A stretch of 64,000 nt of DNA from Patescibacteria group bacterium. GTDB lineage: Bacteria; Patescibacteriota; UBA1384; CAJBMM01. The position numbers and the translations under genes are program-made. The stretch lies in contig JBAZWC010000001.1 of assembly GCA_041660565.1 (NCBI GenBank), positions 70,197-134,196 on the forward strand, given 5' to 3'. Of this stretch, positions 1,609 to 62,475 are shown in pieces. The stretch's first letter is position 1, and every line of letters begins with the position of its first letter. A model generated the notes under the pieces. It did not search any database. It was not told the DNA's origin and saw only the letters and a program-made list of their open reading frames with translations.

Positions 1609-1790
1609 CGCGTTCGAGTTTAGGACGTAAAACGTCCCGAAGCGAGAACGACATCGGTGAAAAGAATAGCTAGTTCTCGGTTTTACCTCGAACAAGAAAA
1701 ACGTAGACCAGACTTCTTGACCTTCCGAAGCTTTAGCGTATGAGGTTAGTCTGTTTTCTTAATAACACAATAAATCGTGGTCTACAAGAA
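1609..1790. repeat. Composite palindromic repeat (GGACGTAAAACGTCC / GAGAAC..GTTCTC module plus CGTAGACCA..TGGTCTACAAG module)
   Basis: Related copies at 9589-9682, 38454-38490 and 49290-49450. Confidence 0.6.
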
Positions 1791-1821
1791 CGAATTGACA
1801 TCCGGACTCGCTCAAGCAATT

Positions 1822-3987
1822 TTATAGATCAAATTGATACACGCTATCGCCAACTAGAATCCAGCCGCGTTTGGATTTGGTGGAAATATAACTTTGTTTA
1901 ATATCACCGAGTGTGGTTTGATACTGCCCGGAGTATTGGCCGTCTTTAGACGCCTCAATAATACGATTTTTGTCTTGAATAAATATTGAATTTCCCGAAC
2001 TATCAGCAAAAATCCGTGCTGGGGAGTCGAGTCCACTGCCGGGCTCAGGAATCTGAATCGGCCCGAACCCAATTGAATTGCCTTTAGTGAATTTGGATAC
2101 ATCGCCCGAATTAAATAGTAGATAAATGTTGCCGTCATTGGTAATGTCTATTGCGCTAGAGTTGGACAGCGTACTTTTAGCCAAGTATGCGGTAACCGCC
2201 GTGAATTTATAGTTGGCGGTGCCGGTAAATTTCCAAATTTGCCCCGAGTCTTTCTCTAGTACATATAGATTTTGCTGATACCACGTTGCCGCTTTAATAC
2301 CGGGCCACTTCTCGGTTGTGGGTAGCGACAACTGAATTAATTGATTATTATTGTCGGTTAAAATAAGCTGCACTTTATTATCACTGGTTGCAACTAAAAT
2401 TTGGCGAGTTAGCTCAAACATAGTGAAGTAGGTAATTTTTGCCCCGTTGCTGGCGGAAAAAATGATATCCGGCGAGGTATTTTTACCCAAAATTTGTCGG
2501 GTAATTTTGGTGCCGTTAGAGTTTGTGGCAAATAAGTATTGGCCAATTATACCAAACCACGTTGTGTCGCCACTAACTTTGGTTATTACGGTAGGGTTAA
2601 TAATGGCGGTGTGATTTATTTCCAATAATAACTGGTTATATTTTGTGGTTATCGTTATTACGTCGCTACTGTCTTTGGGCAAGGTGCTTAGAATGTCGTT
2701 GGCTTTAACCAAATTTGTCCGAGCTAAGTCTGGATTTGTCTTTTTATTCAGCGTGGCAACATCTAAAAATTTATTAGCATCGGAAATTTTTTGGGTAATG
2801 TTGGCGGTAGAAGTGGTGGTGGAGTTTTGATGTTGAGTTCGGTTATATATTGATATCCCCACAATCAGAACCAAAACTAAGGATGAGGCTAATATGGTAA
2901 TTGGTTTGACTTTATTGAATTTACGCGAGGTTTTAACTATCCAGCTTTGGGCATCAACAAAAATGTGAAACAGTGAATGGCTAATTTTTTGTCCTGATGA
3001 GCGTTGCAATTTGGGTGTACCGATCCGAATTTGCGGCTGTGAAGGCTCTTCCGCGTCGCCTGGTTTATATTTCACCGGAATGACTGCCGTGTCTTTATCT
3101 GAGCTGTTGGTGTATTGCAGCTCGGTTTTTGGCTCGGTGTAAAATCGCTTGGCTTTTTGATACCCGCTTTTAACACCGCTGAATATCAGTTTGCTTAGAT
3201 CGGAAGCCGCATCTAATATGCTGTGCCGGAAAGATTTTTCAAAGTTGCCGACACTAGGATTTCGAGATGCTTTGATCACCCCTCCGACAGATGGTTCTAG
3301 TACGATGGTGTATGGTTCGGTTTGGGTATCGAGATCATCATTCTCAATTTTGACCACTACTGCTGATAAGTGATTCAGGTGCAATCTTCTGCCGGCTTGG
3401 AACATAGCCTGTACGCCATTGGTGGGGTTTGACTCGATTGATTGACATAAAAATTGCGGAGAAAAGTGCCGTCCAACCTCGGTATTGCCTAAAATTACAC
3501 TATCGCCGACTGATAATTGCCCAGAGGTTAAATTGGCAAAGGTTTTGTGTACCAATACTCGTCCGGTAATGTTTGCGGTGTTGTCAAAAATGGGTGAGTA
3601 GGTTTGTCCTCTAATAACCGCACCGGTAACTTTGCCGGTGTGAGACAAATAGACTTCGTTATTAACAAAAAGGGCAATCACTGCGTGAATGTGCCCCACC
3701 CAATCATTATTTCCGTTCTCGGCCAATTCGGCCAGCGCCAGGTTTATCTGCTTAATACAATCTTCAAACTGATAGATAGGGGATTTTCGCTCCTCCGAAA
3801 AATATTCGTTTTTAAGACAATCAATGATGGTTTGTTCAACTATTTGACCGAAAGACCGGGGTAGGGGGATATCGATAATATAAACAATATCCCCAAAACT
3901 AAGATCGTTTGGATGATTCAACACGCCCGAGGCAAGGGTGCGCTCGTGTGTGCTTATTGTTGATATTCTGGCTATTGATAACGCCAA
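1822..3987 (-). CDS. Hypothetical membrane protein: about 330-aa cytoplasmic N-terminal domain (weak PP2C/SpoIIE-like GDS motif), one TM helix, large extracellular repeat (beta-propeller-like) domain
   Basis: 721-aa ORF; TM segment ITILASSLVLVLIVGISIY; Ser/Thr/Asn-rich repetitive C-terminal half. Confidence 0.5.
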   Translation of the reverse strand: MALSIARISTISTHERTLASGVLNHPNDLSFGDIVYIIDIPLPRSFGQIVEQTIIDCLKNEYFSEERKSPIYQFEDCIKQINLALAELAENGNNDWVGHIHAVIALFVNNEVYLSHTGKVTGAVIRGQTYSPIFDNTANITGRVLVHKTFANLTSGQLSVGDSVILGNTEVGRHFSPQFLCQSIESNPTNGVQAMFQAGRRLHLNHLSAVVVKIENDDLDTQTEPYTIVLEPSVGGVIKASRNPSVGNFEKSFRHSILDAASDLSKLIFSGVKSGYQKAKRFYTEPKTELQYTNSSDKDTAVIPVKYKPGDAEEPSQPQIRIGTPKLQRSSGQKISHSLFHIFVDAQSWIVKTSRKFNKVKPITILASSLVLVLIVGISIYNRTQHQNSTTTSTANITQKISDANKFLDVATLNKKTNPDLARTNLVKANDILSTLPKDSSDVITITTKYNQLLLEINHTAIINPTVITKVSGDTTWFGIIGQYLFATNSNGTKITRQILGKNTSPDIIFSASNGAKITYFTMFELTRQILVATSDNKVQLILTDNNNQLIQLSLPTTEKWPGIKAATWYQQNLYVLEKDSGQIWKFTGTANYKFTAVTAYLAKSTLSNSSAIDITNDGNIYLLFNSGDVSKFTKGNSIGFGPIQIPEPGSGLDSPARIFADSSGNSIFIQDKNRIIEASKDGQYSGQYQTTLGDIKQSYISTKSKRGWILVGDSVYQFDL

Positions 3988-4401
3988 ACTAAACCACCTT
4001 TAAGTTGCTTATTTCTATTGTATGCTTTGAGTGGCGTATGGCGCAAGGTGCAAAAAATTTTGCATTTATGTTACAATATATTTGCTTCCGGCTGTCCAAC
4101 ACATTGCTTCTTACTTTTTTTTAGGTGGTTCAACATTTATGTAAAGTATTATACCTTACATGTGCGAACTACCACTTGGGATTTTTGAAGCCCAATGTGC
4201 TGTGATGGCCGGAGCAGAATTTGAAAACAGAAAACGATCCCCAATTCTACGAGTCGAAGACTCGTAGAGATGACAGCGAGCAGAGAACAAGCGTTCTCTT
4301 TTTTGTTATTGAATTTGGCCGTTTTTGCCTAAGATAAAAAAAGTAGACCCGGCTGATATGGAGGTCAGCCGGGTCTTGGCTCGCAGGGTTTGGTGGTCGT
4401 G

Positions 4402-5844: not shown

Positions 5845-5878
5845 CAGGGTATAGCTTAGTTGGTAAAGCGCTGGGGTT
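5845..5878 (+). other. Orphan tRNA 5' half (acceptor 5' strand CAGGGTA, complete D-arm GCTT/AAGC, anticodon-stem 5' strand CTGGG), then abruptly replaced by a GC-rich repeat
   Basis: CAGGGTA-TA-GCTT-AGTTGGTA-AAGC-G-CTGGG read directly. The 7-nt acceptor strand is exactly complementary to TACCCTG of the 3' half at 6455-6499. Confidence 0.4.
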
Positions 5879-5975
5879 GGCCTCCGCCCGTAGAGCTACG
5901 CCCGGAGGGCTCCGCCCGTAGGCTCCAGCCTGTAAGGCTTACGCCTGGAAGGGCTACGCCCGGAGGGGGTCAAAA
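5879..5975. repeat. GC-rich CTACGG/CCGTAGG/CTCCGCC module repeat
   Basis: ggcctccgcccgtagagctacgcccggaggg... ; the family recurs at 6330-6356, 6421-6460, 6499-6560, 19270-19400, 30960-31010, 35720-35800, 40790-40870, 49200-49240 and 60540-60640. Confidence 0.6.
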
Positions 5976-5977: not shown

Positions 5978-6238
5978 ATGTGCTATGTATATATATTGAT
6001 CAGCCAAGTTGATATGGAGCGGTATATTGGGTCAACTGTGAATCTTAGTGTTAGGCTGTCAGAGCATGATCTGGGGTTGGTAAATTCTACAAAAAATAGA
6101 CGCCCATTAAAGTTGTATGCTTATCAAATATGTGAGAATATCGGAGAAGCGAGAAAAATTGAGCATATGTACAAGGGTAGCCGGGGTGCTTATGACCGGG
6201 CGATTAAAAAAGGTCAATTGATTATCTTCGGGGAGTAG
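5978..6238 (+). CDS. Small stand-alone GIY-YIG nuclease domain protein
   Basis: YVYILISQ...RYIGSTVNLSVRLSEH matches the GIY-YIG core (GIY..YIG..R..H); the stop codon TAG (6236-6238) lies inside the 5' acceptor stem of tRNA-Pro. Confidence 0.7.
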   Translation: MCYVYILISQVDMERYIGSTVNLSVRLSEHDLGLVNSTKNRRPLKLYAYQICENIGEARKIEHMYKGSRGAYDRAIKKGQLIIFGE

Positions 6239-6305
6239 CATAGCGGCCTAATGCGCTGGGCTGGGGGTCCAGAGACCGGAGGTTCAAATCCTCTCTCCCC
6301 GACCA
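6229..6305 (+). tRNA. tRNA-Pro (anticodon GGG)
   Basis: Manual cloverleaf: acceptor CGGGGAG/CTCCCCG, D-stem GCAT/ATGC, anticodon stem CTGGG/TCCAG with loop CTGGGGG, T-arm GGAGG-TTCAAAT-CCTCT, discriminator A, encoded CCA. Confidence 0.8.
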
Positions 6306-6324
6306 ATTTGAAACTGGAATCGGG

Positions 6325-6397
6325 CTGGGCTCCGCCCGTAGGGCTACGCCCGGAGGGGGTCCAGAGATCGGCAGTTCGAGTCTGCCATCCCCGACCA
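6325..6397 (+). tRNA. tRNA-Pro-like 3' portion: anticodon stem with a 24-nt palindromic insert in the loop, variable loop, T-arm GGCAG/CTGCC, acceptor 3' strand ATCCCCG-A-CCA. No local 5' acceptor or D-arm
   Basis: GGGGTCCAGAGATC identical to tRNA-Pro 39-48; compensatory T-stem and acceptor changes relative to 6229-6305; the expected 5' partner CGGGGAT was not found nearby. Confidence 0.4.
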
Positions 6398-6454
6398 TGA
6401 TATAATGAAGTCTGCGACTAGGCTGGCCTCCGGCTCTACGAGCGGTAGGCTCGG

Positions 6455-6499
6455 AGAGGGGTCCAGAGACCGCCAGTTCAAGTCTGGCTACCCTGACCA
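6455..6499 (+). tRNA. tRNA-Pro-like 3' half (TCCAG, AGACC, T-arm GCCAG-TTCAAGT-CTGGC, acceptor TACCCTG-A-CCA)
   Basis: Compensatory T-stem. The acceptor 3' strand pairs perfectly with the orphan 5' half at 5845-5851; the upstream sequence is a repeat module, not a D-arm. Confidence 0.4.
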
Positions 6500-6588
6500 T
6501 CCCTCGCTCCCTCCTACGCTAAAGCTTCGGAAGGTCAAGAAAGCTACGGATGGCACGGCCAAAAATTAAAAAAATACAAAGGATATGA

Positions 6589-7651: not shown

Positions 7652-7674
7652 GTTGAGATCGGACTTTATGAGCT

Positions 7675-7750
7675 GTCATTCCGGATTTAATCCGGAATCT
7701 ATATAATAAAGTCTTTTATAGTCTGGATTCCGGGTCGAGCCCGGAATGAC
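7675..7750. repeat. Double-hairpin palindromic repeat (GTCATTCCGG..CCGGAATCTATATAA // TTATAG..GGATTCCGG..CCGGAATGAC)
   Basis: Perfect terminal inverted repeats; family copies listed under 4798. Confidence 0.65.
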
Positions 7751-7756
7751 AAGGGA

Positions 7757-9588: not shown

Positions 9589-9682
9589 GTTCGAATTCAG
9601 GACGTAAAACGTCCCGGGGTGAGAACTATCAAGGTAGTTCTCGTTTTGGACGCATGACGTTCCAAACTCGAACGAGAAACCA
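9589..9682. repeat. Palindromic repeat (TTCGAATTC-AGGACGTAAAACGTCC-GAGAAC..GTTCTCG..CTCGAAC)
   Basis: Near-identical module at 1609-1696, 38454-38490 and 49290-49450. Confidence 0.6.
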
Positions 9683-10292: not shown

Positions 10293-10554
10293 TATTCTCA
10301 GTTGAAAACCAAAAACGCCCTGCTTTACGCGGGGCTTTTTGGTATTTATCCTGATGGGTCTCCTAATCAGCTAATAACCCTCCGGCCTCCAGCTCGTAGA
10401 GAGAAATCTACAAAAATATAAATTTTTAATTTTTAATTTCAAATGAATGGTTGCCAATTTTTAAATGACTAAATAAGGAACCATTTAAAATTTAATCATT
10501 TGGTTCTTATTCATTTAAAATTTAGCCTTTAAAATTTAAAATTATATACGGTAA

Positions 10555-12064: not shown

Positions 12065-12093
12065 GATCAGAATAGCACAAATCTCTTTTATAT

Positions 12094-12204
12094 GTCATTT
12101 CGACGTTGAAGAAAGCGTCAGGTACTGTCATTCCGGGCTTGACCCGGAATCTATATAAAAAAAGTCATTTATAGACTGGATTCCGGATCTAGTCCGGAAT
12201 GACA
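12094..12204. repeat. Composite palindromic repeat (TGTCATTTCGAC fragment plus GTCATTCCGG double-hairpin unit)
   Basis: gtcattccgggcttgacccggaatctatataaaaaaagtcatttatagactggattccggatctagtccggaatgaca. Confidence 0.65.
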
Positions 12205-12214
12205 CCAAGAAGGG

Positions 12215-13204: not shown

Positions 13205-13219
13205 ACAAACCTCAGCATT

Positions 13220-13324
13220 GTCATTCCGGACTTGATCCGGAATCTATATAAAAGACTGGAAGGGATTTATTCTTAGATTTCTCCAACACAGTCGTGGTGA
13301 CCCACTCCTAGGGTCGAAATGACA
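13220..13324. repeat. Hybrid palindromic repeat (GTCATTCCGG hairpin unit plus AGATTTCTCC...GGGTCGAAATGACA module)
   Basis: Shares both module types. Confidence 0.6.
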
Positions 13325-13459: not shown

Positions 13460-13973
13460 GTAAGAGTTGCAATCAAGCAAGGCTAAAACCAAGCGCGATA
13501 AGCAGCAGAACCCAAAAACAAAAACGTAAAAATGGCTTGTCTAACATATGTCGGTAGCATATCAAGACGCCCCTTCCTCTATATAGGGATTGGACGTCGG
13601 ATGCGGACAGGTCTTTTTTAAAACAAAGCTTTGTTTTTCTGGCATATGGGATTTATCCCACGCGCTGGAGGGCAGATACCTTTTGAATAAGAGGTGACTG
13701 TTCCAAAGTTAGATCAACCAAGTCTTGGCAAAAATTGTCAAATTACTGGTTCACCTAATCCTTTGGAACAGAACTCTTCTTTCAGCAAAAGTAGGTTGAT
13801 GGCGAAGAGAGCCGTAAATATCAGATCTTGTAGAATTTTTCTTCAAGACGGCGCTCGCCAAAAACTGCTGACAAGTAGACACATGGAGCGGGGACAACAC
13901 CACCTAAAAGTAGATACCCCAGAACCGGCACCTTAACAAATTATCCTTTTCTCTGGTTGACATACATTTTATT

Positions 13974-14061
13974 GTCATTCCGGACTAGATCCGGAATCTA
14001 TGTATAAGAATCCTCGTCTTAGGCTAGGAAAGATTTATTCTTTACTAACCCAAGCCGATGG
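13974..14061. repeat. GTCATTCCGG hairpin unit plus the about 60-nt module GGCTAGGAAAGATTTATTCTTTACTAACCCAAGCCGAYGG
   Basis: The same 60-nt module recurs at 15170-15224. Confidence 0.6.
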
Positions 14062-14215
14062 AGTTTAACTTCGTCTGGCCTACCCCTCCCCGGGGTTAAT
14101 GCCGTCACGGCGTTGGGGAAACGGCATCTGGTGCGTATGGCGTAAGCCGCGCACCAAGTATTCGGTCAGCGTAACCGTAAGGCGAAGTTGACCAGATCCC
14201 TGGGAGGGGAAAAAG

Positions 14216-15037
14216 ATGGAATCCGCTAACGGGCAGATCGTCGACGCGTCTCATGTCGTCGACAATCCAGAGTCGGATCTCGTGACGATCTTGTCGCAGA
14301 ACGGTGGACGGACTATCGAAGTGATAGTGCCCGACGTCTGTGACCACGAGACGGTTTCTGAGCGCCTTTCGAGGCTGCTTGGAAAGCACGTTTCCGACTC
14401 CGACCTTTCCTCCGTTTGGGTTGGAGAGGAAGAGAAGCAATGCGCTTCTCTGATAGTCTCCTCCGACAAGGAGGGAGTACTGCAGGTCGCCCATAAGGAG
14501 GGCAACAAGATGAACCGCAAGCAAGCTTTGGCGCTGATTGGCGCCGCCGTGTCGTTCGGGTACACCGTGGTGGAAACGTTCGCGGACAACCGCGCGCTCC
14601 CCGCGTTCAGTCCTGCAGGCCGCCCGGGTTCCTGGTCGGATGTCGCGGAAGCGTATTACGACCGCTTCTTCGACCTTGATGACCTCTCCCAGTGGGAGTC
14701 GGTCGTCGGGCTGCTCCAGAAATGGTCCCACACGCGTGAGGCCTTCGGGATTCTGATCCCGACCCGGGACGATTTTGTCCTGGAGATCGAGCGCGCTGTT
14801 CGGCAGCGCCCGATCGACGGGGAGATGTACGTTCCCGAGGCTATGCCGCTTGCCGAGGCGGTCTGTAAGATGATCATGCTCGGCGCCACCACGGAGGAAA
14901 TCCTCGGCTGGGTCGAGGAGATCAACCTCCACACTGACGGCCAGGCACCGATCCTGTTCGACGCAATCGAGCAGGCGAACGAGCCTCGGTCGGAGCGGGG
15001 TGGCCGCGGCCGCGAGGCGGCCGAGGCCAGCAACTAG
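14216..15037 (+). CDS. Hypothetical protein, cassette 1 of high-GC island
   Basis: 273-aa ORF, about 60% GC, strong RBS GGGAGGGG 7 nt upstream; the opposite-strand ORF 14105..15130 is judged a GC shadow. Confidence 0.5.
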   Translation: MESANGQIVDASHVVDNPESDLVTILSQNGGRTIEVIVPDVCDHETVSERLSRLLGKHVSDSDLSSVWVGEEEKQCASLIVSSDKEGVLQVAHKEGNKMNRKQALALIGAAVSFGYTVVETFADNRALPAFSPAGRPGSWSDVAEAYYDRFFDLDDLSQWESVVGLLQKWSHTREAFGILIPTRDDFVLEIERAVRQRPIDGEMYVPEAMPLAEAVCKMIMLGATTEEILGWVEEINLHTDGQAPILFDAIEQANEPRSERGGRGREAAEASN

Positions 15038-15044
15038 TTCCACG

Positions 15045-52783: not shown

Positions 52784-55700
52784 TTATTTAATTTCTTTTA
52801 GAAAATTGTCAATCGGTAATTTATCATAAACTTTCTTTATTACTTCTCCCACTTCCTTTTCCCACTGGGAGTAGTCATTCTGCTTTAGCAGCCGATAATA
52901 TTCCGCAGCTTTACCGTATGCCACCTCAGCTCTAAATGCATTGGTGATTTGTTGGTGATATTCTTTGGGAATTATTGCCCGCACTGCTTTGGCAGCACCA
53001 CCGAGATATTTTGGGATAATATGATGCGATTCAGTTTTAATAACATTTTTTGCGGTGTTGACTGCGGTGCTTGTTTTTGCAATGTTTGCTGCAGTTTTTG
53101 TAGTAGAGCCACCACCTACAGGTGTCAAATCCCCAACAAGTCCGACACCCGCAATTATTTTGTCCGTTTTAGTTGTATTTGGGTCGAATACTGTACTCAC
53201 GTCGTTTGCAATTAAACATTGCATCACTGGGCTATTGGCAATGTAAAATAGTGAAGCTAGAATCAAAGGCGAGTAGATTATTAAAGGAGCCAAGAAAATA
53301 ATTTTACCGCTGGGATCTGTGTGTGTTAATGGGCTATTATTACAATAGATATATGGATTTGATCCTAGTGCGGTATTATCTGCAACAACAGGGTCTTGGC
53401 TGGTGAAACGTCCTAAACTTGGATCGTACATCCTAGCTTTCATATAGTATAGCTTAATCGTGCTGTCATACCAATACCCGGCATATAGACGAGGGTTTAA
53501 TTTATCCAGATTATTTTGTGGAGCTGGTGGCTGAGGTACGGCTCGGGAATCTGGTGTCGGCCCACCCATAGTTGAAACTGTTACATTGCCCCATGCATCG
53601 TAAGAGTATGAAACTAAACGGTTGCCAGATGCATCTGTAAGCCCAGTAATGTCTGAATGGCCGTTTTTAAGGTAATAATAGGTCTGCGGATTGTTGTTTG
53701 TGTCTGGAATGGTTACGGACGATAAGTTTTCATCTTCGTCCCAAGTGTAAGTGCGCAGCATTTTTCCTGCCGCGTCTGTTTCAGAAACCAGCTTGTCTCC
53801 GTCATAGACAAACTTGGTAGTAGAAACAACGCCGGTGGGTGATGTTTCGGTGCGGGTGGCTCGCTGTTTGGTTAATTCGTTGTAGGTGTATTCTACCGTA
53901 GTGTTGTCTGGTGTTATTGCTTTAATAAAGTAGTCATCGGCATCATAGAAATACTGGGTAATGCCGTTTTTACTATCGGTTACTTTTGTAACATTGCCGT
54001 TTTTATCATATTCGTACGTTTTTGTTCCGTTAACGGTGCTGGTTTCTTTGATAAGGCGGTTTGCATCACCCAGTTCATCATAGGCGTAGGTAATGGTTTC
54101 GGCCGCCGTAGTTTTCTTGGTGCGGTTGCCCATTAAATCGTATGAATAAGTGGTACCGTTTTCACCGGTTAACTGGTCACGTGCATCGTATGCGTAGGTA
54201 CGTGTGCCGGTTAGCGAATCTATAGCGGTGGTAATATTTGAATTAGCATCGTACGTATATGAAATCTGTTGTTGTATGGCGCCGGCTTTATATTTGTTAA
54301 CTACCTGTTTAACTCTACCGGAGGTGTCGTAGGTGTAGGAAGTGGTATCACCATTTGGTTTTTTAACCGCTGTTAATTTGCCTTCGGCGTCTTTGGTCAA
54401 AATGTTGGTTAGCACTTGGCCGGTTTGAGCCAGGGTGGTTGAAACTTGGCTAACTTCTTGGTTGGCATCGTATACGGTGGCTACAGTGGCGGTAGAAACG
54501 GCGCTAGTAACCACGTTATCGTTTTTGTCGTAGGTTAGGGTATTGTTGCCGGTAATGTTAGATTGAACTGCGGTAACATTATCATTTTTATCATAGGTAA
54601 TGGTGTCGTTTTCAGATTTTACGGTAGATGTGGTCTGAACTACATTGTCGTTTTTATCGTACGATACGCTTGTGGTGCCATCTTTGTCGGTAATTTGGGT
54701 TGCATTACCATTTTTGTCAGTTGTGGCGGTGGTGGTGCTACCGGATTGATCTGTGGCAGACGTAATATTGCCATTTCTATCGTACACTGCTGTTTCGGGA
54801 ACGCCGGTGGCATCAGTTGTTTTGGTTAGCTGGTTTAGCTCGTCGTAGGTATTAATGGTCATTTTGCCTTTGGCATCCGTAGTTTTAACTACATTGCCAA
54901 CAGCATCAAAGGTGGTGGAAGTTATTGCTCCCACCGCATCGGTAAGTTTGATCTGCCGGTTTAATTTATCATAAGTGTAAGTAGTGACGTTTCCTTTGGG
55001 GTCAATATCTTTTAGTTTGTTGCTGTTTTTATCATATTCGTATCGGTTTGTAATGCCAGCCGGGTCTTTAATGCTGGTTAGGCGCCCCAAATTGTCATAA
55101 GCATAAGTAAGCGTGTTTCCCATGGCCGATTTCTCGGTTAGTTTGCGGCCAACGGTATCGTACGTAAAGGTAGATGTCTCTAACTTTGGCGACACGGTGG
55201 TTAACACATCGCCATCTGCGGTGTATGTAAATTTGGTTATGGCTCCTTTAGAATCGGTAACGGTAACTTTGTGCCCCTTGGCATCATAAGTAGCTGAATC
55301 TACATTTCCCTTGGCGTCTGTTGTAGATAACAACAACCGGCGGCCGTCGACCGAATAGGTGGCGGTGGTAACATTACCTTTTGGATCGGTAGTTTTAACT
55401 AAGTCGTAGCCCGCATAAACATTGGTGGTGGTGGCGTCCATTGGGTCTTTGGAAGTCAATAAGTTATCATTTGCGTCGTAGGTGTTGGTGTAATTAAAGT
55501 AGTAATATTCGTTTTCTGGGAGGTCTGGGGTAATAGTGGTAACGTTATAATTTCCATCATTACCGTAAATTTGGCGATAGCCTTTGGGGTTGGTAAAGTT
55601 AATTAACAAATTGTTCTGGTCAAAAGTGGCGTTAGATTTTCGCCCCAAAGCGTCTGTTATATCAACCGACCGATTATTGTATGACAGTTTGCTGCTGTTG

Positions 55701-58700
55701 CCCAGTGCGTCTTTAACCTCTGAAACGCGGTTTTGAATATCGTAATAAATGTAAGTAGAGCTGCCGTTTTTATCCACATACCTGGTCATTTTTCCTGCTG
55801 GTGTGTACTGATAGGCATATAATCCACCCAGCGGGTCTATAACACTTGTTAATTTAAACGGCGTTACGGTGGTGTTATAAGAATATGTAATTTTTTGACC
55901 AAGTTGGTTGGTAACAGTTTCTAGCCGTTTGCCGGTGTAGGTAAGTGTTATAAAGCGCCCGCCATCCACAATTTTGGTGACATTCCCATTTGTGTCTCTG
56001 TTATAGGATATGGTATTGCCGGAAAGATCAACTCGTTTTTGCAACAGCCCAGTGCTAGAAAAGTAGGTTTTTAACCCGGATTTAGAAATAATGGCGTAAG
56101 TGTTGTCTGCGTTTTTAACTAAGTCTATGGAAAGACCGGTTGGGCGTTTGTACGTTCCATTTGCGTTCCTAGAAAAAATATCTACCGCGCCGGTGCCGTC
56201 TTGGTACATTACATTATCCGGGTCAGCAAAGTTTAGATACTCATCAAAACTGGCACGCCATCCTTGTCCCATGGTAGCGGTGGTTGTAAGTGGAAGTTGA
56301 TTATCGGTATCTAGCAATAAGCCGGTAATTTGTGTGTTGTCGGTATTCAAAAATCTAGCCGAAAGCGCCCAAGCAGATGAAGCATGTGCTACTTTAAACA
56401 TTACTTTATTCCAACCAGCTAAAAGCGGCACATCAACCGAGTCGCTATCTAGGGTAATGCCGCGCAGAACATCTTTAAGCCAAACCATGTTGCCGTTAAC
56501 CCACACCTTTACGCCATCTGCCGAGCCAATTTTTAAGCGATACGTTTTGGCGTTAAGAACATAAACATTAGTATACGCGTAAACAGTGGCGTTACTGTTG
56601 TAACCGGATTCAACTGAGCCAGCGCTAGCTAACGCGGCGCTAATATCTAATGCCGGCGTTGCCGATGAGGTTTTGAACCACAAGTTGCTAGATGAAACCG
56701 AGCCAACCGTTGGTTGTGCTGTGGCTTCATTAGCAATAAATGCCTTTGATAGCCTGCCGGCCTGATTGCTTTCGCGGTATGGGCCGTTAACTAGCCAACT
56801 GCGAATATAACCATTTGCATCTGGAACAGTTGGGGTGTTGGCTAAGGTAGAGTTATATGACCGCCCAACTGCCAGCAAGCCGGTGTTAGATGGCACAGTC
56901 ATATCTGTACTGGAATAAGCTACGTTTCCTGTTGCCAAGTCTATTGGCCCGGCTTTGGTGTAATATTTTTCATCACCTAAATGAATAGAGCTAGAAAGCG
57001 CGGGGTTGGTAATAGCTATTGCAATGTTTTTAGTAGCCACGTTTTGAGTTGAAAACCAAGTTTTGTTGTTTACCTGATACATATCTAGCTGCAAAGTGTA
57101 GTTGCCGGCGTTTAGTGGAGCTGGAACATTTAATAATATGTTTCCAGTAGCACCGTATTTTGCCACATCAGACTGGAAATTTTGTGGGGTGCCATTGAAA
57201 ATATAAGTTTGCCCGGCAGAATCAACCCAGTGATATCCGAGTTGAAACTGTCCAATTGGCCAATTTTGGTTACTCATATTCGTAACTGACATTGGCAAAG
57301 AAATGGTACTATTCGCAGTGGCGCTAGTTGGCGGGTTATTTAGGTTGTATGTGGCACCGTACGCGGGGTAGTCAATGGCGGTTAAGCTAACGTCTTTGGT
57401 GGGTACACCCTGTTCGGAAAACCACGTTACACCTTCTTGTACCATGTCCCATTTAACTGTGTAATTTCCGGGTATACTTGGAATTTTTACAGTTGCATTA
57501 AGAACTACTCCATCACCATGAGGGGCAATATCTCTTGGCAACAGCGTCCGCACGCCATCCCATGTTACTAATTGCCCCGCAGAATTATAAATGTGATAAC
57601 TTAAATGTGTGTCAGATTTTAACCATGTATTTCGTCCGGTGTTTTGCGCGACCACGTCAATTGCACCACTTGTATCAATTAATTGAGACCCTAAATTATT
57701 TGTAGAATATTCAGCATAATAATCACGATAATCTATTGTTAGCCGTGGTTCATATTCTAGCGGAGTGGTGGGGTCGTTTTCAGCCACCCATATTCGGTAA
57801 CCACTAGGATTTTCCCAGTCAGATTTAAATGCCAGTGCTCCGATCCATGATCCATTTTGGTTATGCGATTCAAACCAATATTTTAAGGCGTTCGTCACAT
57901 TCATTGCATAATTTGGACCGCTATCGCCATATTGATACCCAACTTCTCCTATTCCTAGTGGCTGATTATTCCAGTTGACAGTCTTTGAATTAAACCAAGG
58001 CACGAGATTGGCTGTTACTCCAGAGACGGAGCATATCTGTACACAGGCTTTTTGGCGGACAGTAAAAGTGGCGTTGATAATATTTGCGTCGGTTAGATCT
58101 GGGATACTAAACGGAATTAGGGTGCGTGTTAGCCCTTTGCGGTATGTCCCTTCTTGGTGATTTCCCACATACAAATTGGCTTGATCCCAAGTGCTGGTAT
58201 TTGGATAATACTGTTCAACGTAGCTATCCTCACCGTAATGCAAATCTACCACCACGGTAGGGTCAATTACTACCGGATAAACTCGAGCGGTGTCTGAAAG
58301 CCACTGCGCATCTGGGGTCATGGTCAAAACATAACCACCAGTTTCCGGTTCCAGCGCCACACTTATGGCATCGCTATATTCATTTGCTTCGGAATCTTTG
58401 CCACCCCGCGCGTCCCACATTGTCATTTTGGGAATATAAAATGCTGTTTTTTGGTCTTTGTCCAAAAAGCTAATTGACCCGTCATCGCCTTTTTGGGCGG
58501 TAACACCGGTGGTTTGCAAGTGATAAACAAAGCTGGTTTGAGTGGGTTTTTGATTTAGGGTAATTTCTTCTTTAACGCCTTCCGGGATAGCGTAATAAGT
58601 TACATTTATACCCGGTGTAACATTGCCGTAGGTAATTTGGTTATTTTTAACTGCCGTGCTGGGGGTAAACAGGGTGGAAAGTTGAAGATTAGATAGATTC

Positions 58701-59161
58701 AAGGCATTTGGTGCCGGTGCTGTGGCTTCTAGCGCAAAGCTAACCTCGTTGCCGTTGCTAGAAATAGAGACCGGTTTGTCTGATAGTTGGTTAGGCAAAG
58801 ATAGGATGAATGAGTTGGCGCCGTTTTTATATCCGTTGTCGGTGGGTAATAAATTATTATCAATTTCTTTCCATACGGTTTTGCCATTTTCGGTTGCCGA
58901 GTAGTTTATTGGAGTGGAATAAACTACCGCTTGCATTGTGCCATCCGGTTGTTGGAAAGTCTTGGAATATTCGCCGCGTTTATCAGTAATTTCTTGCGGT
59001 ACGGTGATGGGCGGTTTGGGGGGTAAAGTAAATTGAGTGTCAGATACCGGCGCGGGGGTTGGTTGTGCGGCCGGAGTGGCGGCAAATGCAGACGCGGGCA
59101 GATTGGGGATGGTAAACATCACCATCAGTAGGTAGATAAAACCCTTTTTAATTGACGCCAT
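52784..59161 (-). CDS. RHS/YD-repeat polymorphic toxin (2125 aa) with signal peptide and C-terminal HNH-fold nuclease-like (SHH/AHH-type) toxin domain
   Basis: Many YD repeats (Y.YD..GN....TD..G..T.Y.YD); RHS core end ...PYIYCNNSPLTHTDPSGK (DPxG); about 170-aa C-terminal tail with ESHHIIPKYLGG. Confidence 0.8.
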   Translation of the reverse strand: MASIKKGFIYLLMVMFTIPNLPASAFAATPAAQPTPAPVSDTQFTLPPKPPITVPQEITDKRGEYSKTFQQPDGTMQAVVYSTPINYSATENGKTVWKEIDNNLLPTDNGYKNGANSFILSLPNQLSDKPVSISSNGNEVSFALEATAPAPNALNLSNLQLSTLFTPSTAVKNNQITYGNVTPGINVTYYAIPEGVKEEITLNQKPTQTSFVYHLQTTGVTAQKGDDGSISFLDKDQKTAFYIPKMTMWDARGGKDSEANEYSDAISVALEPETGGYVLTMTPDAQWLSDTARVYPVVIDPTVVVDLHYGEDSYVEQYYPNTSTWDQANLYVGNHQEGTYRKGLTRTLIPFSIPDLTDANIINATFTVRQKACVQICSVSGVTANLVPWFNSKTVNWNNQPLGIGEVGYQYGDSGPNYAMNVTNALKYWFESHNQNGSWIGALAFKSDWENPSGYRIWVAENDPTTPLEYEPRLTIDYRDYYAEYSTNNLGSQLIDTSGAIDVVAQNTGRNTWLKSDTHLSYHIYNSAGQLVTWDGVRTLLPRDIAPHGDGVVLNATVKIPSIPGNYTVKWDMVQEGVTWFSEQGVPTKDVSLTAIDYPAYGATYNLNNPPTSATANSTISLPMSVTNMSNQNWPIGQFQLGYHWVDSAGQTYIFNGTPQNFQSDVAKYGATGNILLNVPAPLNAGNYTLQLDMYQVNNKTWFSTQNVATKNIAIAITNPALSSSIHLGDEKYYTKAGPIDLATGNVAYSSTDMTVPSNTGLLAVGRSYNSTLANTPTVPDANGYIRSWLVNGPYRESNQAGRLSKAFIANEATAQPTVGSVSSSNLWFKTSSATPALDISAALASAGSVESGYNSNATVYAYTNVYVLNAKTYRLKIGSADGVKVWVNGNMVWLKDVLRGITLDSDSVDVPLLAGWNKVMFKVAHASSAWALSARFLNTDNTQITGLLLDTDNQLPLTTTATMGQGWRASFDEYLNFADPDNVMYQDGTGAVDIFSRNANGTYKRPTGLSIDLVKNADNTYAIISKSGLKTYFSSTGLLQKRVDLSGNTISYNRDTNGNVTKIVDGGRFITLTYTGKRLETVTNQLGQKITYSYNTTVTPFKLTSVIDPLGGLYAYQYTPAGKMTRYVDKNGSSTYIYYDIQNRVSEVKDALGNSSKLSYNNRSVDITDALGRKSNATFDQNNLLINFTNPKGYRQIYGNDGNYNVTTITPDLPENEYYYFNYTNTYDANDNLLTSKDPMDATTTNVYAGYDLVKTTDPKGNVTTATYSVDGRRLLLSTTDAKGNVDSATYDAKGHKVTVTDSKGAITKFTYTADGDVLTTVSPKLETSTFTYDTVGRKLTEKSAMGNTLTYAYDNLGRLTSIKDPAGITNRYEYDKNSNKLKDIDPKGNVTTYTYDKLNRQIKLTDAVGAITSTTFDAVGNVVKTTDAKGKMTINTYDELNQLTKTTDATGVPETAVYDRNGNITSATDQSGSTTTATTDKNGNATQITDKDGTTSVSYDKNDNVVQTTSTVKSENDTITYDKNDNVTAVQSNITGNNTLTYDKNDNVVTSAVSTATVATVYDANQEVSQVSTTLAQTGQVLTNILTKDAEGKLTAVKKPNGDTTSYTYDTSGRVKQVVNKYKAGAIQQQISYTYDANSNITTAIDSLTGTRTYAYDARDQLTGENGTTYSYDLMGNRTKKTTAAETITYAYDELGDANRLIKETSTVNGTKTYEYDKNGNVTKVTDSKNGITQYFYDADDYFIKAITPDNTTVEYTYNELTKQRATRTETSPTGVVSTTKFVYDGDKLVSETDAAGKMLRTYTWDEDENLSSVTIPDTNNNPQTYYYLKNGHSDITGLTDASGNRLVSYSYDAWGNVTVSTMGGPTPDSRAVPQPPAPQNNLDKLNPRLYAGYWYDSTIKLYYMKARMYDPSLGRFTSQDPVVADNTALGSNPYIYCNNSPLTHTDPSGKIIFLAPLIIYSPLILASLFYIANSPVMQCLIANDVSTVFDPNTTKTDKIIAGVGLVGDLTPVGGGSTTKTAANIAKTSTAVNTAKNVIKTESHHIIPKYLGGAAKAVRAIIPKEYHQQITNAFRAEVAYGKAAEYYRLLKQNDYSQWEKEVGEVIKKVYDKLPIDNFLKEIK

Positions 59162-60354: not shown

Positions 60355-60454
60355 ACCTTGATGGTATCAGAAAAATGATTTTTCGACAAAAATACTGAAA
60401 TTTTTGGGCAAGAATTTGAAATTTGAAATTTACAATTTGAAATGATGGAGGGAG

Positions 60455-60650
60455 CTCATTCTTTAATTTCTCCCTCCTTCGCTCATCCTAGATTCGGAAC
60501 GGCACAGCGGGCGGAACGCTGAGCGTCCCATTGCCCCGCTCAGCGGGGCGGACATCCCCCTTCGCCACCTCCTACGCTAAAGCTTCGGAAGGTCAAGAAG
60601 GCTACGGAGGACAAGCATGGGTCCGCCCCTACTTAGGTCGTGAAAGTTAT
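60455..60650. repeat. Mosaic repeat (GGAACGCTGAGCGTCCC; CCCCGCTCAGCGGGG; GGGCGGACATCCCCC..CTACGCTAAAGCTTCGGAAGGTCAAGAAGGCTACGG..GGTCCGCCCC)
   Basis: Related to 40705-40913 and 19260-19400. Confidence 0.65.
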
Positions 60651-61419: not shown

Positions 61420-62207
61420 GATCTTGCCCTCGAATACGGATCAACCGCTTTTGTATTCACTTCTTCATCTAAAAATGTTTTGCCAGTGGTGGCTAGAAAT
61501 ACCTCTTCCAGAGATTTGGTTTTATGCTTGGATAATAATTCGGGGATAGTGCCCTCGGTTACGATGTGCCCGCTGTCCATAATGGCTACCCGTTCACACA
61601 ACTCCTCGGCTTCTTCCATAAAGTGAGTGGTTAAAAAGATGGTCATACCGGCTTTATTTAGATTGCGCAGGTGTTGCCAGATTAACTGCCGAGCGTGCGG
61701 GTCTAACCCAACTGTTGGTTCGTCAAGAAACAGCACTTTTGGCTTGTGTAGCAAAGCTAACGCTAAGTCAAATCTGCGGCGCATTCCGCCAGAGTAGGTG
61801 GCGGTGTATTTGTCAGCCACTTTTTCTAACTCAACCAGCTTTAGTAGCTCCTTAATCTGTTTATTTATCTCGGCAGGCGGGAGGTGATAAAGCCGTCCGT
61901 GTAGTTGCAGCATTTCCCGTGCAGTAGCGGTTTCATCTAACCCAACTTCTTGCATTGCAAAACCAACTAATTTATAAATCTCTTTTTCGTTTTCGGATAC
62001 TTCTAGATTATCTATTTTGACCGATCCGCTGGTTTTTTTAACCAGATTGACCAGCATATTGATGGTAGTGGTTTTCCCAGCCCCGTTTGGACCCAGAAAA
62101 CCAAAAAACTCTCCTTCTCTGACTTCAAACGAAATGTTGTCCACTGCGTTTTTGTCGGATTTGGGGTAGTGTTTGACCAGATTTTTAACTTCGATTATGT
62201 TTGCCAA
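61416..62207 (-). CDS. ABC transporter ATP-binding protein
   Basis: Walker A GPNGAGKTT, signature YSGGMRRR, Walker B LFLDEPT. Confidence 0.8.
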   Translation of the reverse strand: MANIIEVKNLVKHYPKSDKNAVDNISFEVREGEFFGFLGPNGAGKTTTINMLVNLVKKTSGSVKIDNLEVSENEKEIYKLVGFAMQEVGLDETATAREMLQLHGRLYHLPPAEINKQIKELLKLVELEKVADKYTATYSGGMRRRFDLALALLHKPKVLFLDEPTVGLDPHARQLIWQHLRNLNKAGMTIFLTTHFMEEAEELCERVAIMDSGHIVTEGTIPELLSKHKTKSLEEVFLATTGKTFLDEEVNTKAVDPYSRARS

Positions 62208-62353
62208 TTTAATCCCTTCTTTAATTTATTCTAAGCATAGATTAATGTGGGTTACAGTAGCGTTTGGCTATTGTACCAATCCCGGTCAAGATGGTCAAGT
62301 AGGTTTGACACGTGAATTAAGAAACCTATTAAGTGAGCTAATGTTTCACTCTT

Positions 62354-62475
62354 GTCATCTCGACTCCTCGAGCTTTGTCTCGAGGGTGGAGAGATCTCAA
62401 GAAAGACTGGAAAAGATTCTTTCTCAGATTTCTCCAACGCAGTCGATTTGACAATCTCCTCGGGTCGAAATGACA
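62354..62475. repeat. Complete about 120-bp palindromic element (TGTCATCTCGAC..GTCGAAATGACA)
   Basis: About 85% identical to 21880-22012. Confidence 0.7.

Follow-up and report, generated by a model that had tools for sequence, protein, structure and literature searches.

The window analysed here, a 64,000-nucleotide (64-kb) stretch of DNA from a Patescibacteria group bacterium, is rich in short palindromic repeats, which raises the question of whether they form one mobile system and which protein could have spread them. A sequence-only reading had described more than 25 copies of an active MITE/REP-like system filling most of the intergenic space. Self-BLAST of the window revealed 47 repeated intervals, 3.4 kb in total, and more than 40 modules could be counted when the C, D and C2 copies were included; the repeats are thus real and not low-copy coincidences, and the count given earlier was borne out. 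At least one repeat was present in 26 of the 39 intergenic gaps, but the claim on intergenic space was too strong, as repeats covered 24% of intergenic bases, a lower bound because similarity was taken from the window alone. The modules are real but do not form a single new system; the window is a mosaic of small hairpin repeats in an ultra-small Patescibacteria genome (Table 1).

Table 1. Positions of repeat units and associated genes in the window.
Feature	Position	Strand	Remarks
A unit, CGCCAGCTGGCG hairpin nested in loop	4797-4838	+	right arm degenerate
A/A inverted dimer, tags outward	7674-7751	.	78 bp; TGTCATTCCGG..CCGGAATCTATATAA...GGATTCCGG..CCGGAATGACA; ssDNA fold -19.2 kcal/mol, z -5.7
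B end fragment, then A/A dimer	12093-12204	.	B end 12093-12125; dimer 12126-12204 (79 bp)
A/B hybrid dimer	13219-13324	.	A unit left, B unit right
Solo A unit	13973-14001	+	followed by 54-nt sequence repeated at 15172 (family D20)
Solo unit almost identical to Neisseria NTS	15125-15152	+	TGTCATTCCCGCGAAGGCGGGAATCCAG; sole SRM-pattern match
Solo A unit	38412-38440	+	3' of pilC
A unit, CCGCCAGCTGGCGG hairpin nested in loop	47200-47241	-	begins 10 nt past typA stop codon
Complete B/B dimer	21880-22002	.	123 bp; ssDNA fold z -7.0
B half-unit in frame in transketolase	22916-22956	-	interdomain linker, residues about 301-315
B half-unit in frame in pilB	33266-33334	+	23 codons; SSLSFRPGELVRATTLEKSQERI
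B/B dimer with nested C composite	35689-35872	.	61-nt composite (35731-35791) after GTTGG of left unit
Solo B unit, empty C site	37072-37139	+	3' of pilT; GTTGGAGAAATCT
B unit, then C composite	40796-40915	-	composite 40796-40858
Solo B unit with C hairpin	49158-49255	+	30-nt hairpin (49200-49229) at GTTGG^AGAAATCT
Complete B/B dimer	62353-62475	.	123 bp; 80% identity to 21880 dimer; family D7
tRNA-Pro(UGG) 5' half	5845-5880	+	positions 1-36, ending ...GTTGG
Block interrupting tRNA-Pro(UGG) anticodon loop	5881-6459	+	579 bp; holds GIY-YIG gene, tRNA-Pro(GGG), tRNA fragment
Single-domain GIY-YIG nuclease gene	5978-6238	+	86 aa; 3' end overlaps tRNA-Pro(GGG)
tRNA-Pro(GGG), intact	6229-6305	+	
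tRNA-Pro(GGG)-like fragment	6322-6397	+	anticodon stem to 3' end; 26-nt C hairpin (6330-6355) in anticodon loop
tRNA-Pro(UGG) 3' half	6460-6499	+	acceptor strand TACCCTG pairs 7/7 with CAGGGTA at 5845
Module D multi-hairpin	1612-1693	+	GTTCGAG-[AGGACGTAAAACGTCC]-[GAGAAC..GTTCTC]-CTCGAAC
Further module D copies	9589-9673; 49332-49401; 49410-49454	+; +; -	partial copy at 38455
C2 family	19258-19384	+	GGGCGGAC...CCTACGCTAAAGCTTCGGAAGGTCAAG...GTCCGCCC
Further C2 copies	60546-60641; 6505-6550; 30958-31014; 1702-1758; 43599-43627	last two -	
92-nt block, four small hairpins	40705-40796	.	inverted copy 44876-44967, 95.7% identity
AT-rich heptamer microsatellite	37019-37044	.	(AATTTGA)n; adjoins B unit
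Similar heptamer arrays	49308-49328; 60413-60443; 10513-10543		
14-nt repeats	19184-19222		

Modules A and B comprised 23 units, all starting with TGTCAT and built on one plan: a TGTC tag, a hairpin beginning with AT and a C tail; most of them lie in inverted dimers, of which the window has six. The module A motif, GTCATTCCGG-N7-CCGGAAT, had seven exact matches compared to none in 100 shuffles, and 10 A units could be recognised including the degenerate or nested copies at 4797, 15125 and 47241. Their 8-9-bp stems start with AT and carry loops of 3-5 nt and CTA or CCA tails. The module B end TGTCATTTCGAC produced 13 matches (at most one mismatch) against 0.32 expected; in B units, the tag, the C tail and the ATTTC/GAAAT base of the stem are retained around a bulged interior of 25-30 nt, and these units lie outside the rule of an 8-9-bp stem with a 4-5-nt loop. 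The A units satisfy every defining feature given for the CGTC-tagged REP superfamily (PMC3733652) and are classified as its TGTC-tagged members (dRS3/NTS/SRM class); the B units are classified as its long, bulged variants. The published SRM search pattern matched one of the 23 units (15125). Some earlier assignments had to be revised: the supposed A unit at 12094 is a B end beside an A/A dimer, 44826 belongs to the inverted copy (of 40705-40796) of the 92-nt multi-hairpin block and not to module B, and 35689, rightly seen as a B unit with C, is not partial, since it begins a complete B/B dimer with a 61-nt C insert. The in-frame copies noted in coding genes were found in transketolase and pilB.

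More than 120 loci, spread over many phyla, contained the exact module-A hairpin. In 120 such A-seeded loci, 316 units were observed against 3 in shuffles, with an 8-bp stem in 271, a 5-nt loop in 213 and a C directly after the stem in 307; stem sequences varied, and tag and tail were constant. An inverted partner could be found in 90 of 165 cases (median outer length 70 bp). Some loci of other phyla contained 17-24 units within 8 kb; the density called striking in the window is therefore not unique.

In other Patescibacteria, such hairpins enclose nuclease genes. At locus L076, an Ssn-like gene of 95 aa lies between exact module-A hairpins, with a similar layout at two further loci (L043 and L028), while a relative with an 80% identical TypA (L161) carried a TGTCATTCCGG-hairpin, an Ssn-like gene and an NTS-type hairpin in this order, together with the exact 12-nt B end GTCGAAATGACA. 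The hairpin-gene-hairpin unit with the nuclease gene was about 370 bp long. An Ssn-like gene occurred within about 8 kb at 3 of the 120 A-seeded loci, and none was detected in the 64-kb window. Since an Ssn-like gene is enclosed by A- and B-type ends in other Patescibacteria, the 78-bp dimers of the window look like gene-less miniatures of Ssn-bearing units. The B end adjoining the A/A dimer at 12093 also recalls the unit of the relative, where a B end lies about 20 nt from the NTS-type hairpin.

The module C of the sequence-only reading merged two unrelated families, CCTCCG..CGTAG..CTACG..CGGAG hairpins and the CCTACGCTAAAGCTTCGGAAGGTCAAG family (C2). Module C proper is a GC-rich imperfect hairpin (CCTCCGSC-CGTAG..CTACG-GSCYGGAG), separate from A and B, with folding no stronger than that of shuffled sequence (z -0.5 and -1.1). 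Its copies follow YTGG within loops of other hairpins, both in B units and in tRNA-Pro (anticodon and D loops). Comparison with shuffled sequence revealed no fold signal in the C2 family, and module D folds gave z values of -3.3 and -4.1.

A 579-bp block with C ends and a GIY-YIG gene has split tRNA-Pro(UGG). Joining 5845-5880 to 6460-6499 restores a perfect 76-nt tRNA, and C hairpins bound the block at both ends (5881-5968 and 6427-6459). The position of a repeat in a tRNA anticodon loop (6330-6356) could be confirmed, but 6322-6397 is only a tRNA fragment in which the D arm and the 5' strand of the acceptor stem are missing; in a Berkelbacteria genome, the GIY-YIG gene is followed by a near-copy of this fragment. 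The protein encoded in the block, the sole GIY-YIG product of the window, retains Y5, Y16, R26, H30 and E62. It shares 44% identity over 52 residues with an Ssn-like protein and belongs to a subfamily other than Ssn, partnered with C and tRNA genes. All seven distinct loci examined for homologues of at least 47% identity had tRNA-Pro(GGG) genes or their fragments as neighbours, together with C-like hairpins; a stringent C sequence search recovered only three of the seven. Matches of the C search were confined to GIY-YIG homologue loci, with none among the 120 A-seeded loci (890 kb). At four homologue loci and in the window, the 5' tRNA fragment breaks off at or near GGGTC, a short distance 3' of the hairpin. 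The window yielded no match to group I or II introns. Module C is apparently an undescribed second hairpin family with its own GIY-YIG gene.

Comparison of the copies supports past copying of the repeats, because the C site is empty in some B units and filled in others otherwise alike, because the C composite at 40796-40858 is identical to 35729-35791 over 63 nt between unrelated flanks, and because units just 3' of typA differ in presence and type among relatives (the window has a solo unit, the 89% relative a dimer with another type of stem, and the 86% and 80% relatives no unit). The description as REP-like was right, while current activity is not supported. Nesting of modules inside one another, seen as hairpins in unit loops and C in B units, and the AT-rich heptamer microsatellites beside units agreed with the earlier description.

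The whole is best explained, with a probability of roughly 0.6, by at least two partnerships between hairpins and GIY-YIG nucleases, A/B with an Ssn-type enzyme and C with a second subfamily. In ssDNA, each A/B unit would fold and present an unpaired (T/C)GTC tag, an AT-initiated stem and a C tail, and an Ssn-type single-domain GIY-YIG endonuclease may bind the folded unit and nick nearby. The 78-184-bp dimers and solo units would be gene-less derivatives of hairpin-gene-hairpin units, spread either through nuclease cuts and copying or through recombination among the copies. The C-partnered GIY-YIG protein may cut close to the C hairpin, a few bases away, which would explain the common break point of tRNA fragments in several genomes. 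To our knowledge, transposition activity of such a GIY-YIG protein has never been demonstrated. For Ssn-type GIY-YIG proteins, transposition is proposed as a hypothesis only (Chenal et al. 2025, PMC11893778). A common preference for tRNA-Pro genes could also suffice to make neighbours of C and the GIY-YIG gene, and the block could have entered tRNA-Pro(UGG) via recombination between C copies and not by an element-encoded activity.

Movement of the modules as MITEs or REPs by an IS200/IS605 TnpA or RAYT encoded elsewhere in the genome would agree with the hairpin ends, the lack of target-site duplications at the units, the preferred short target YTGG of C and its central GTAG/CTAC motifs. This is very unlikely, however, as the unit tag is TGTC and not GTAG, the GTAG of C is at the hairpin centre and not at an unpaired 5' end, CGTC REPs were never found flanking RAYT or IS200 genes (PMC3733652), and the genes between such hairpins encode GIY-YIG nucleases. 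A Pfam scan of 57 window ORFs did not reveal the cognate transposase suggested earlier, nor any Y1 or other transposase domain. The hairpins may instead be mainly regulatory elements acting at the RNA level for host benefit (3'-end stabilisers, terminators or small RNAs) that spread incidentally. Their strong folds, the intergenic position of 20 of 23 units, many just 3' of pilus-operon genes, the reported location of CGTC REPs mostly downstream of genes, and a weak match of the A/A dimer at 12093-12204 to the Wolbachia small RNA family WsnRNA46 (26.7 bits, E 0.43) are in line with such a role. Nevertheless, it is improbable: the orientation of the units varies, they are present in four divergent (promoter) gaps and twice inside coding sequence, and unpaired tags and tails that never change, next to stems of variable sequence, are more in keeping with hairpin recognition by a protein than with a common RNA function. 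Transcription termination, also raised earlier, is not indicated, since terminator-like sites in 30-50 kb were at chance level (24 against 22.3) and no unit there scored as an intrinsic terminator.

A comparably small probability is given to the tRNA-Pro pieces and C being debris of a free-standing homing endonuclease or of a tRNA-targeting integrase-type element, with C an unrelated repeat accumulating there. A GIY-YIG gene within a tRNA cluster resembles phage T4 SegB (PMC2330249), partial tRNA duplications flank the homologous gene in many genomes, and more distant homologues are beside Val, Tyr, Arg, Ala and Gln tRNAs without the same C sequence. Against this, the tRNA fragment boundaries coincide exactly with C hairpins, C is also present with precise ends in B units remote from any tRNA, each of the seven closer homologue loci has C-like hairpins, and no integrase was found in the window. 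Chance similarity or assembly artefacts have practically no probability, with nothing in favour: motif counts far above shuffles and the same hairpin in over 120 independent assemblies from many studies refute them, and ORFs read through both intragenic copies.

A REPtron is a RAYT gene flanked by its own REPs. Like REPtrons, and IS200/IS605 elements with their miniatures, the partnerships described here combine a gene flanked by presumed target hairpins with numerous hairpins scattered elsewhere singly or in dimers, insertion without target-site duplication and a short preferred target beside the insertion (YTGG for C). Unlike in those systems, the gene between the hairpins codes for a GIY-YIG nuclease and not an HUH/Y1 transposase, and we know of no strand-transfer chemistry for such a nuclease. 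Neisseria intergenic mosaic elements are built of short alternating hairpin repeats bracketing variable segments in many combinations, a plan that the window shares. It is shared also with the BIMEs of E. coli, intergenic mosaics of short hairpin repeats in alternating orientation bracketing variable segments (PMC2817692), which differ in having GTAG-tagged REPs and RAYT; the window holds at least five unrelated hairpin families nested in one another's loops. The CGTC-tagged REP superfamily, with Neisseria dRS3 and Rickettsia RPE-4 and RPE-6 among its members (Di Nocera, De Gregorio and Rocco 2013, PMC3733652), has the same unpaired CGTC/TGTC tag, 8-9-bp AT-starting stem, 4-5-nt loop and 3-nt CCA-like tail, with head-to-head dimers, often of unlike partners, and occasional in-frame genic copies. 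Patescibacteria are absent from the five phyla listed in 2013, and the bulged 25-30-nt interior of module B and the hairpins nested in loops set the window apart from that superfamily.

The Ssn family of GIY-YIG ssDNA endonucleases is the partner of NTS/SRM repeats; NTS (CGTCATTCCCGCG..CGCGGGAATC) is cut by SsnA as ssDNA, and Ssn cleavage was shown to limit recombination of incoming ssDNA in Neisseria and three other species (Chenal et al. 2025, PMC11893778). The window frame GTCATTCC...GGAATC is identical to NTS, unit 15125 being nearly NTS itself; units likewise cluster around surface and pilus genes, and hairpin-gene-hairpin units surround genes for single-domain GIY-YIG proteins of about 95 aa in other Patescibacteria and the relative. 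In contrast to NTS/SRM, 22 of 23 window units lie outside the published SRM pattern, and the window has no Ssn-like gene, its own GIY-YIG gene being of another subfamily. GIY-YIG genes are also found in non-intron insertions of rRNA genes in candidate-phyla-radiation bacteria (Tsurumaki et al. 2024, PMC11270868). These insertions and SegB resemble the window in a GIY-YIG gene within or beside a structured-RNA gene, stem-loop tops as sites, many short ORF-less insertions and no group I or II intron. The window differs in its target, a tRNA-Pro left in two pieces 579 bp apart, and in an insert bounded by a specific hairpin repeat that is also found outside RNA genes.

Self-alignment of the window by BLAST, a check put forward with the sequence-only reading, revealed 47 repeated intervals amounting to 3.4 kb. 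The core of module A, a short-stem hairpin, was matched exactly seven times against none in shuffles, and the 12-nt end of module B, a long bulged hairpin, 13 times against about 0.3 expected. The dense modular repeat system described earlier is therefore real, and an artefact could be excluded. All 23 units, 10 of type A and 13 of type B, open with TGTCAT when read from the unpaired tag. The A stem is ATTCCGG, replaced by ATTCCCGC in one of the 10 A units, and eight simple A units have a stem of 8–9 bp and a loop of 3–5 nt. The B stem has a 5-bp base, ATTTC...GAAAT, which encloses a bulged and imperfect interior of 25–30 nt. A units end in a CTA or CCA tail, B units in CT. Six inverted dimers could be identified in the window (see table). 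As single-stranded DNA the units folded far better than shuffled sequence, with z values of −3.8 for an A unit, −5.7 for an A/A dimer and −7.0 for a B/B dimer.

The repeats cover 24% of the intergenic bases, and 26 of 39 gaps hold at least one, which is less than the claim that they occupy most of the intergenic space. Twenty of the 23 units are intergenic and three lie inside ORFs. Copies in frame in coding genes, as proposed from the sequence, were confirmed in two real genes, in the interdomain linker of transketolase and in the N-terminal part of pilB. The third ORF-located unit (15125) reaches only into the questionable start of a minus-strand ORF in a GC-rich island, where a plus-strand reading looks more likely. 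An RNase H/RVT_3-type gene starts 11 bp past the B/B dimer at 62353–62475. Weak similarity of the A/A dimers (12126–12208 and 7675–7752) was seen to WsnRNA46, a Wolbachia small RNA family (26.7 bits, E 0.43), and to the model of a plant microRNA precursor, which suggests that some published "small RNA" families were built on the same repeat class.

Coordinates of repeats, tRNA parts and neighbouring features (window positions unless a locus is named)
Feature	Position (strand)	Remark
A/A dimers	7674; 12126	tags outward
A/B dimer	13219	tags outward
B/B dimers	21880; 35689; 62353	tags outward
B units, C site empty	33266; 37072; 22002	
B unit, C site filled	49158	30-nt insert
B unit, C site filled	35689	61-nt insert
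Identical C composites	35729-35791; 40796-40858	
Four-hairpin block	40705; 44876	inverted-repeated
Module D copies	1612-1693; 9589-9673; 49332-49401; 49410-49454 (-); 38455	copy at 38455 partial
tRNA-Pro(UGG), 5' part	5845-5880	first 36 bases, ends in anticodon TGG
tRNA-Pro(UGG), 3' half	6460-6499	completes tRNA-Pro(UGG)
tRNA-Pro(GGG)-like fragment plus C	6322-6397	
B end near A-type hairpin	12093-12204	resembles L161
RNase H/RVT_3-type gene	62486-62956 (+)	
Type IV pilus cluster	32752-44741	
GC-rich island	14105-18892	
72-nt intergenic repeat	15045; 15767; 16717; 17483	within GC-rich island
A units at island's left end	13973; 15125	
Hammerhead ribozyme candidate	18968-19027 (+)	type III
tRNA-Trp(CCA) call	21041-21111	ARAGORN
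RHS-repeat protein gene	52784-59161 (-)	
Ssn-bearing unit, Patescibacteria MAG	L076 4940-5313	374 bp
Ssn-like gene call, 80% relative	L161 1485-1811	
B-like dimer, Berkelbacteria MEZY01000038	L121 1046-1177	

CGTC-tagged REPs are defined by a CGTC or TGTC tag, a stem of 8–9 bp starting with AT, a 4–5-nt loop, a CCA-like 3-nt tail, head-to-head dimers and occasional intragenic copies, and include dRS3, RPE-4 and RPE-6 (Di Nocera et al. 2013, PMC3733652). The window units carry the tag and the C tail and form the six head-to-head dimers; the stem and loop lengths agree in the A units and differ in the B units. By architecture, the A/B family belongs to the CGTC-tagged REPs. The proposed MITE/REP-like nature thus held for the REP architecture, but not for a classical MITE, since the inverted ends are present and none of the six window dimers is flanked by a target-site duplication. 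Comparison with the Neisseria hairpin repeat NTS revealed that unit 15125 is nearly NTS itself, and the other 22 units share its GTCAT...AT-C frame yet lie outside the published degenerate pattern of the NTS-related motifs (SRM). This pattern gave one match in the window, at 15125, against 0.19 expected, and 22 of the 23 units did not fit it; the units were thus classed by architecture instead.

The exact A hairpin was searched in one genome per species, which yielded at least 120 loci, together 890 kb. The listed loci came from Patescibacteria, Ignavibacteria, Elusimicrobia, Gammaproteobacteria, Rickettsiales, spirochaetes, Planctomycetes, Chloroflexi and others. They contained 316 GTCAT-hairpin units compared to three in shuffled sequence. 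Among these 316, the stem was 8 bp in 271, the loop 5 nt in 213, the base after the stem C in 307, and the base preceding GTCAT T in 281 and C in 26. The tag and tail were constant across the listed loci, with widely varying stems (ATTCCGG, ATCCTGA, ATTCCCG, ATGCTGA and others). At 5–60 bp past the A hairpin there was usually a hairpin in inverted orientation, with a different stem type and ATGACA at its end; an inverted partner was present for 90 of 165 units, and hairpins nested in loops were common in the listed loci.

SsnA, a small single-domain GIY-YIG protein, binds and cuts NTS (CGTCATTCCCGCGMAVGCGGGAATCYRG) only as single-stranded DNA; SRM flank ssnA homologues in many phyla, and a role of Ssn proteins in spreading the repeats was only guessed at (Chenal et al. 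2025, PMC11893778). No Ssn-like gene was found within the 64-kb window. In a Patescibacteria MAG (L076), a 95-aa Ssn-like gene lies between inverted exact module-A hairpins, and similar units were present at two further loci (L043 and L028). The L076 gene has an in-frame TGA at the invariant glycine of the family (LYTGVTN), which indicates that this genome reads TGA as glycine (code 25). In a relative whose TypA is 80% identical to that of the window (L161, a 396-kb contig), a TGTCATTCCGG hairpin is followed after 12 nt by a 96-aa Ssn-like gene, whose stop codon is overlapped by an NTS-type hairpin; 8 nt further on lies the B end GTCGAAATGACA in its exact form. The encoded protein matched that of L076 with an E value of 9e-26. 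Both A- and B-type ends are thus physically paired with Ssn-like genes in relatives. One window stretch resembles L161 in that about 20 nt separate a B end from a CGTC-type hairpin, which is NTS-type in L161 and A-type in the window. From these gene-bearing units and the like arrangement in the window, the 78–123-bp window dimers look like gene-less versions of Ssn-bearing units. The related full-length unit carries a nuclease and no known transposase, which speaks against a MITE derived from a transposase-bearing element. Both the Ssn-like proteins and the window's own GIY-YIG protein retain the catalytic residues Y, Y, R, H and E; a search of solved structures returned no named Ssn structure among the matches for either type. 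The public call of the L161 gene begins within the upstream hairpin, and its product opens with translated repeat (MSFRLVRNLS). The true start is likely 12 codons further on, and such repeat-derived peptides probably contaminate protein databases.

Turnover is visible at the shared site 3' of typA, where the proposed comparison for presence or absence revealed differences among the window and the relatives with 89%, 86% and 80% TypA identity. In the window, a solo A unit with another hairpin nested in it lies 10 bases past the typA stop; its place is taken in the 89% relative by a 67-bp dimer whose stem differs (ATCCCTGC). The 86% and 80% relatives have an empty site, the former lacking units altogether over 22 kb.

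Module C is a GC-rich imperfect palindrome (CCTCCGSC-CGTAG-xx-CTACG-GSCYGGAG) which folded no better than shuffled sequence, so that its symmetry is clearer than its stability. Filled and empty sites could be compared in the B units, where the site considered for C is GTTGGAGAAATCT. Three B units have an empty site in which CACGTTGG runs directly into AGAAATCT; one filled unit has 30 nt between CACGTTGG and AGAAATCT, and another has 61 nt between TACGTTGG and AGAAATCT. The B units were otherwise alike and differed by the presence or absence of C. The 61-nt insert is C with another hairpin nested in its loop, which bears out the earlier observation that modules nest inside one another. This composite was identical over 63 nt in two places with unrelated flanks, which shows that it had been copied as one block with exact boundaries. 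The left flank of C was YTGG in most cases, in the window and in other genomes, and the YTGG-flanked sites include D loops (AGTTGG directly before C) and anticodon loops of tRNAs. Matches to C by blastn-short were confined to GIY-YIG/tRNA-Pro homologue loci, with none in the 120 listed A-seeded loci.

The gene for tRNA-Pro(UGG) is split in two by 579 bp. Its 5' part and 3' half, when joined, form a perfect 76-nt tRNA with all seven acceptor-stem pairs Watson–Crick, and the other two 3' halves do not fit the 5' part. The ARAGORN intron mode and a brute-force join scan were permissive and uninformative; the specific joined construct decided the assignment. The 579-bp insert opens and closes with C hairpins. 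It carries the only GIY-YIG gene of the window (86 aa; PF01541, E 3.6e-13), which retains the catalytic residues, an intact tRNA-Pro(GGG) that overlaps the stop codon of this gene, and a tRNA-Pro(GGG)-like fragment whose anticodon loop contains a 26-nt C; the repeat in an anticodon loop had been noticed already from the sequence. Group I introns are frequent in tRNA genes of Patescibacteria. Such an intron between the tRNA halves was rejected, because no Rfam intron family model matched anywhere in the window at E up to 1 and the insert also holds a whole tRNA gene.

The window's GIY-YIG protein is only distantly like an Ssn-like protein (44% identity over 52 residues), and tblastn and phmmer searches of the 120 listed A-seeded loci gave essentially no match, which showed that it is not the partner of module A. 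Its homologues occur in Berkelbacteria and other Patescibacteria, and a four-sequence alignment served as the query for metagenome homologues. All seven distinct loci with a 47–62% identical protein adjoin tRNA-Pro(GGG) genes or fragments bearing C-like hairpins. At four of these seven, and in the window, the 5' tRNA fragment ends shortly past the hairpin, at GGGTC or nearby, and the Berkelbacteria copy carries nearly the same fragment-plus-C as the window. More distant homologues adjoin other tRNAs, and a tRNA lies within about 400 bp of the GIY-YIG gene at 17 of the 21 distinct homologue loci examined. Module C thus goes together with a second GIY-YIG subfamily and with tRNA-Pro. About 230 bp upstream of one such locus, in Berkelbacteria, a B-like dimer (GGTCATCTCGAC ... 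GGTTCGAAATGACA) was present, which indicates that B-type ends occur outside the window's own genome.

An Ssn-type enzyme is inferred to act on the window's A and B units and the window's GIY-YIG protein on C, and such cuts, rather than recombination between copies, would spread the units. A joint reading of both pairs, to which we give a probability of about 0.3, is that the long-missing enzymes which mobilise CGTC-type and related hairpin repeats are the single-domain GIY-YIG nucleases. The hairpin–GIY-YIG–hairpin unit would be the autonomous element and the solo or dimer hairpins its miniatures, inserting into single-stranded hairpin loops beside a short motif (YTGG for C). The C-type element would target tRNA-Pro anticodon loops and so split tRNA-Pro(UGG), a split that may be tolerated by the host or rescued at the RNA level.

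The modules had been read as one active system with an IS200/IS605 TnpA or a RAYT as the candidate enzyme, and mobilisation by such an enzyme found no support. The A and B units have no GTAG tag, the GTAG of C lies at the hairpin centre and not at the 5' end, and a Pfam scan of 57 window ORFs gave no Y1 transposase domain, nor any transposase or integrase domain. [quoted passage not shown] A purely RNA-level role of the hairpins may exist as a side function, and it fits poorly with their mixed orientations, promoter-side positions and copies in coding sequence. The suggested check for termination was likewise negative, no unit being flagged as an intrinsic terminator in 30–50 kb of the window. 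For the tRNA locus, the adjoining tRNA genes would also suit a SegB-like homing endonuclease surrounded by unrelated debris, which is a possible explanation.

The window is bacterial, with about 44% G+C apart from the one GC-rich island. It carries a type IV pilus cluster (pilB, pilT, pilC, pilins and prepilin peptidase), transketolase, Nramp, a Fic protein, an RHS-repeat protein and two tRNA synthetases, and many ORFs have no Pfam match. Within the pilus cluster a GTCAT-hairpin unit lies in four intergenic gaps (after pilB, pilT, pilC and pilD) and another inside pilB. The RHS-repeat protein (2125 aa) is large for a reduced genome and is likely a polymorphic toxin or surface protein. The GC-rich island (58–59% G+C compared to about 43%) has five plus-strand ORFs with no Pfam match and high third-position G+C, and four copies of a 72-nt intergenic repeat; it is probably acquired DNA. 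Each of the two A units at its left end is followed by the same 54-nt sequence. The hammerhead candidate just 3' of the island has an intact CUGAUGA and GAAAC core and GUC cleavage site, and scored 41.8 bits, below the gathering score of 48.5 (E 1e-5 for the whole window). The tRNA-Trp(CCA) call is 71 nt long with the anticodon at position 29, and no Rfam tRNA match at E up to 1 was obtained, so that either the call is doubtful or the tRNA is unusual.

Module D is a multi-hairpin element of about 85 nt (GTTCGAG...CTCGAAC) in four to five copies, with an outer stem GTTCGAG/CTCGAAC round two or three hairpins (z −3.3 and −4.1). No Rfam family matched it, and it may be either a structured RNA or a further small mobile element. 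A six-copy family, C2, gave no fold signal, a 92-nt block of four hairpins occurs twice, and several units are bordered by AT-rich heptamer arrays. Modules B, D and C2 had no significant match in about 50 kb from four relatives and the Berkelbacteria locus, which indicates lineage-specific sequences; the 92-nt block and the AT-rich arrays had no match in about 50 kb from relatives.

The core of the finding is a known class, described in 2013 as abundant and without a dedicated enzyme until a GIY-YIG cutter was found in 2025. The host group, the long B variant and the systematic loop-in-loop nesting are new; the foremost novelty is a second hairpin/GIY-YIG pair, which is associated with tRNA-Pro genes and has split a tRNA-Pro(UGG). 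Within a single lineage, the same ends are found on versions with and without the gene. Since a second, sequence-unrelated hairpin family goes with a second GIY-YIG subfamily, the partnership may be general, and the clean filled and empty sites with a defined target motif make the insertion reaction testable with oligonucleotides. That a reduced genome should have a tRNA-Pro(UGG) gene interrupted by 579 bp is puzzling by itself; if it is the sole copy, an unknown rescue route is implied.

The host group is thought to depend on DNA uptake by type IV pili. The crowding of units in the pilus operon may be tied to this uptake, which would suggest a link to transformation control as in Neisseria, where the NTS/SsnA pair lowers transformation by NTS-bearing DNA (PMC11893778). 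The pilus-cluster units recall both this effect and the clustering of NTS round surface genes. The tRNA-Pro locus follows a pattern related to that in rRNA genes of the same bacterial group, in which GIY-YIG genes occur in non-intron insertions at the tops of stem-loops, beside many short insertions with no ORF (Tsurumaki et al. 2024, PMC11270868).
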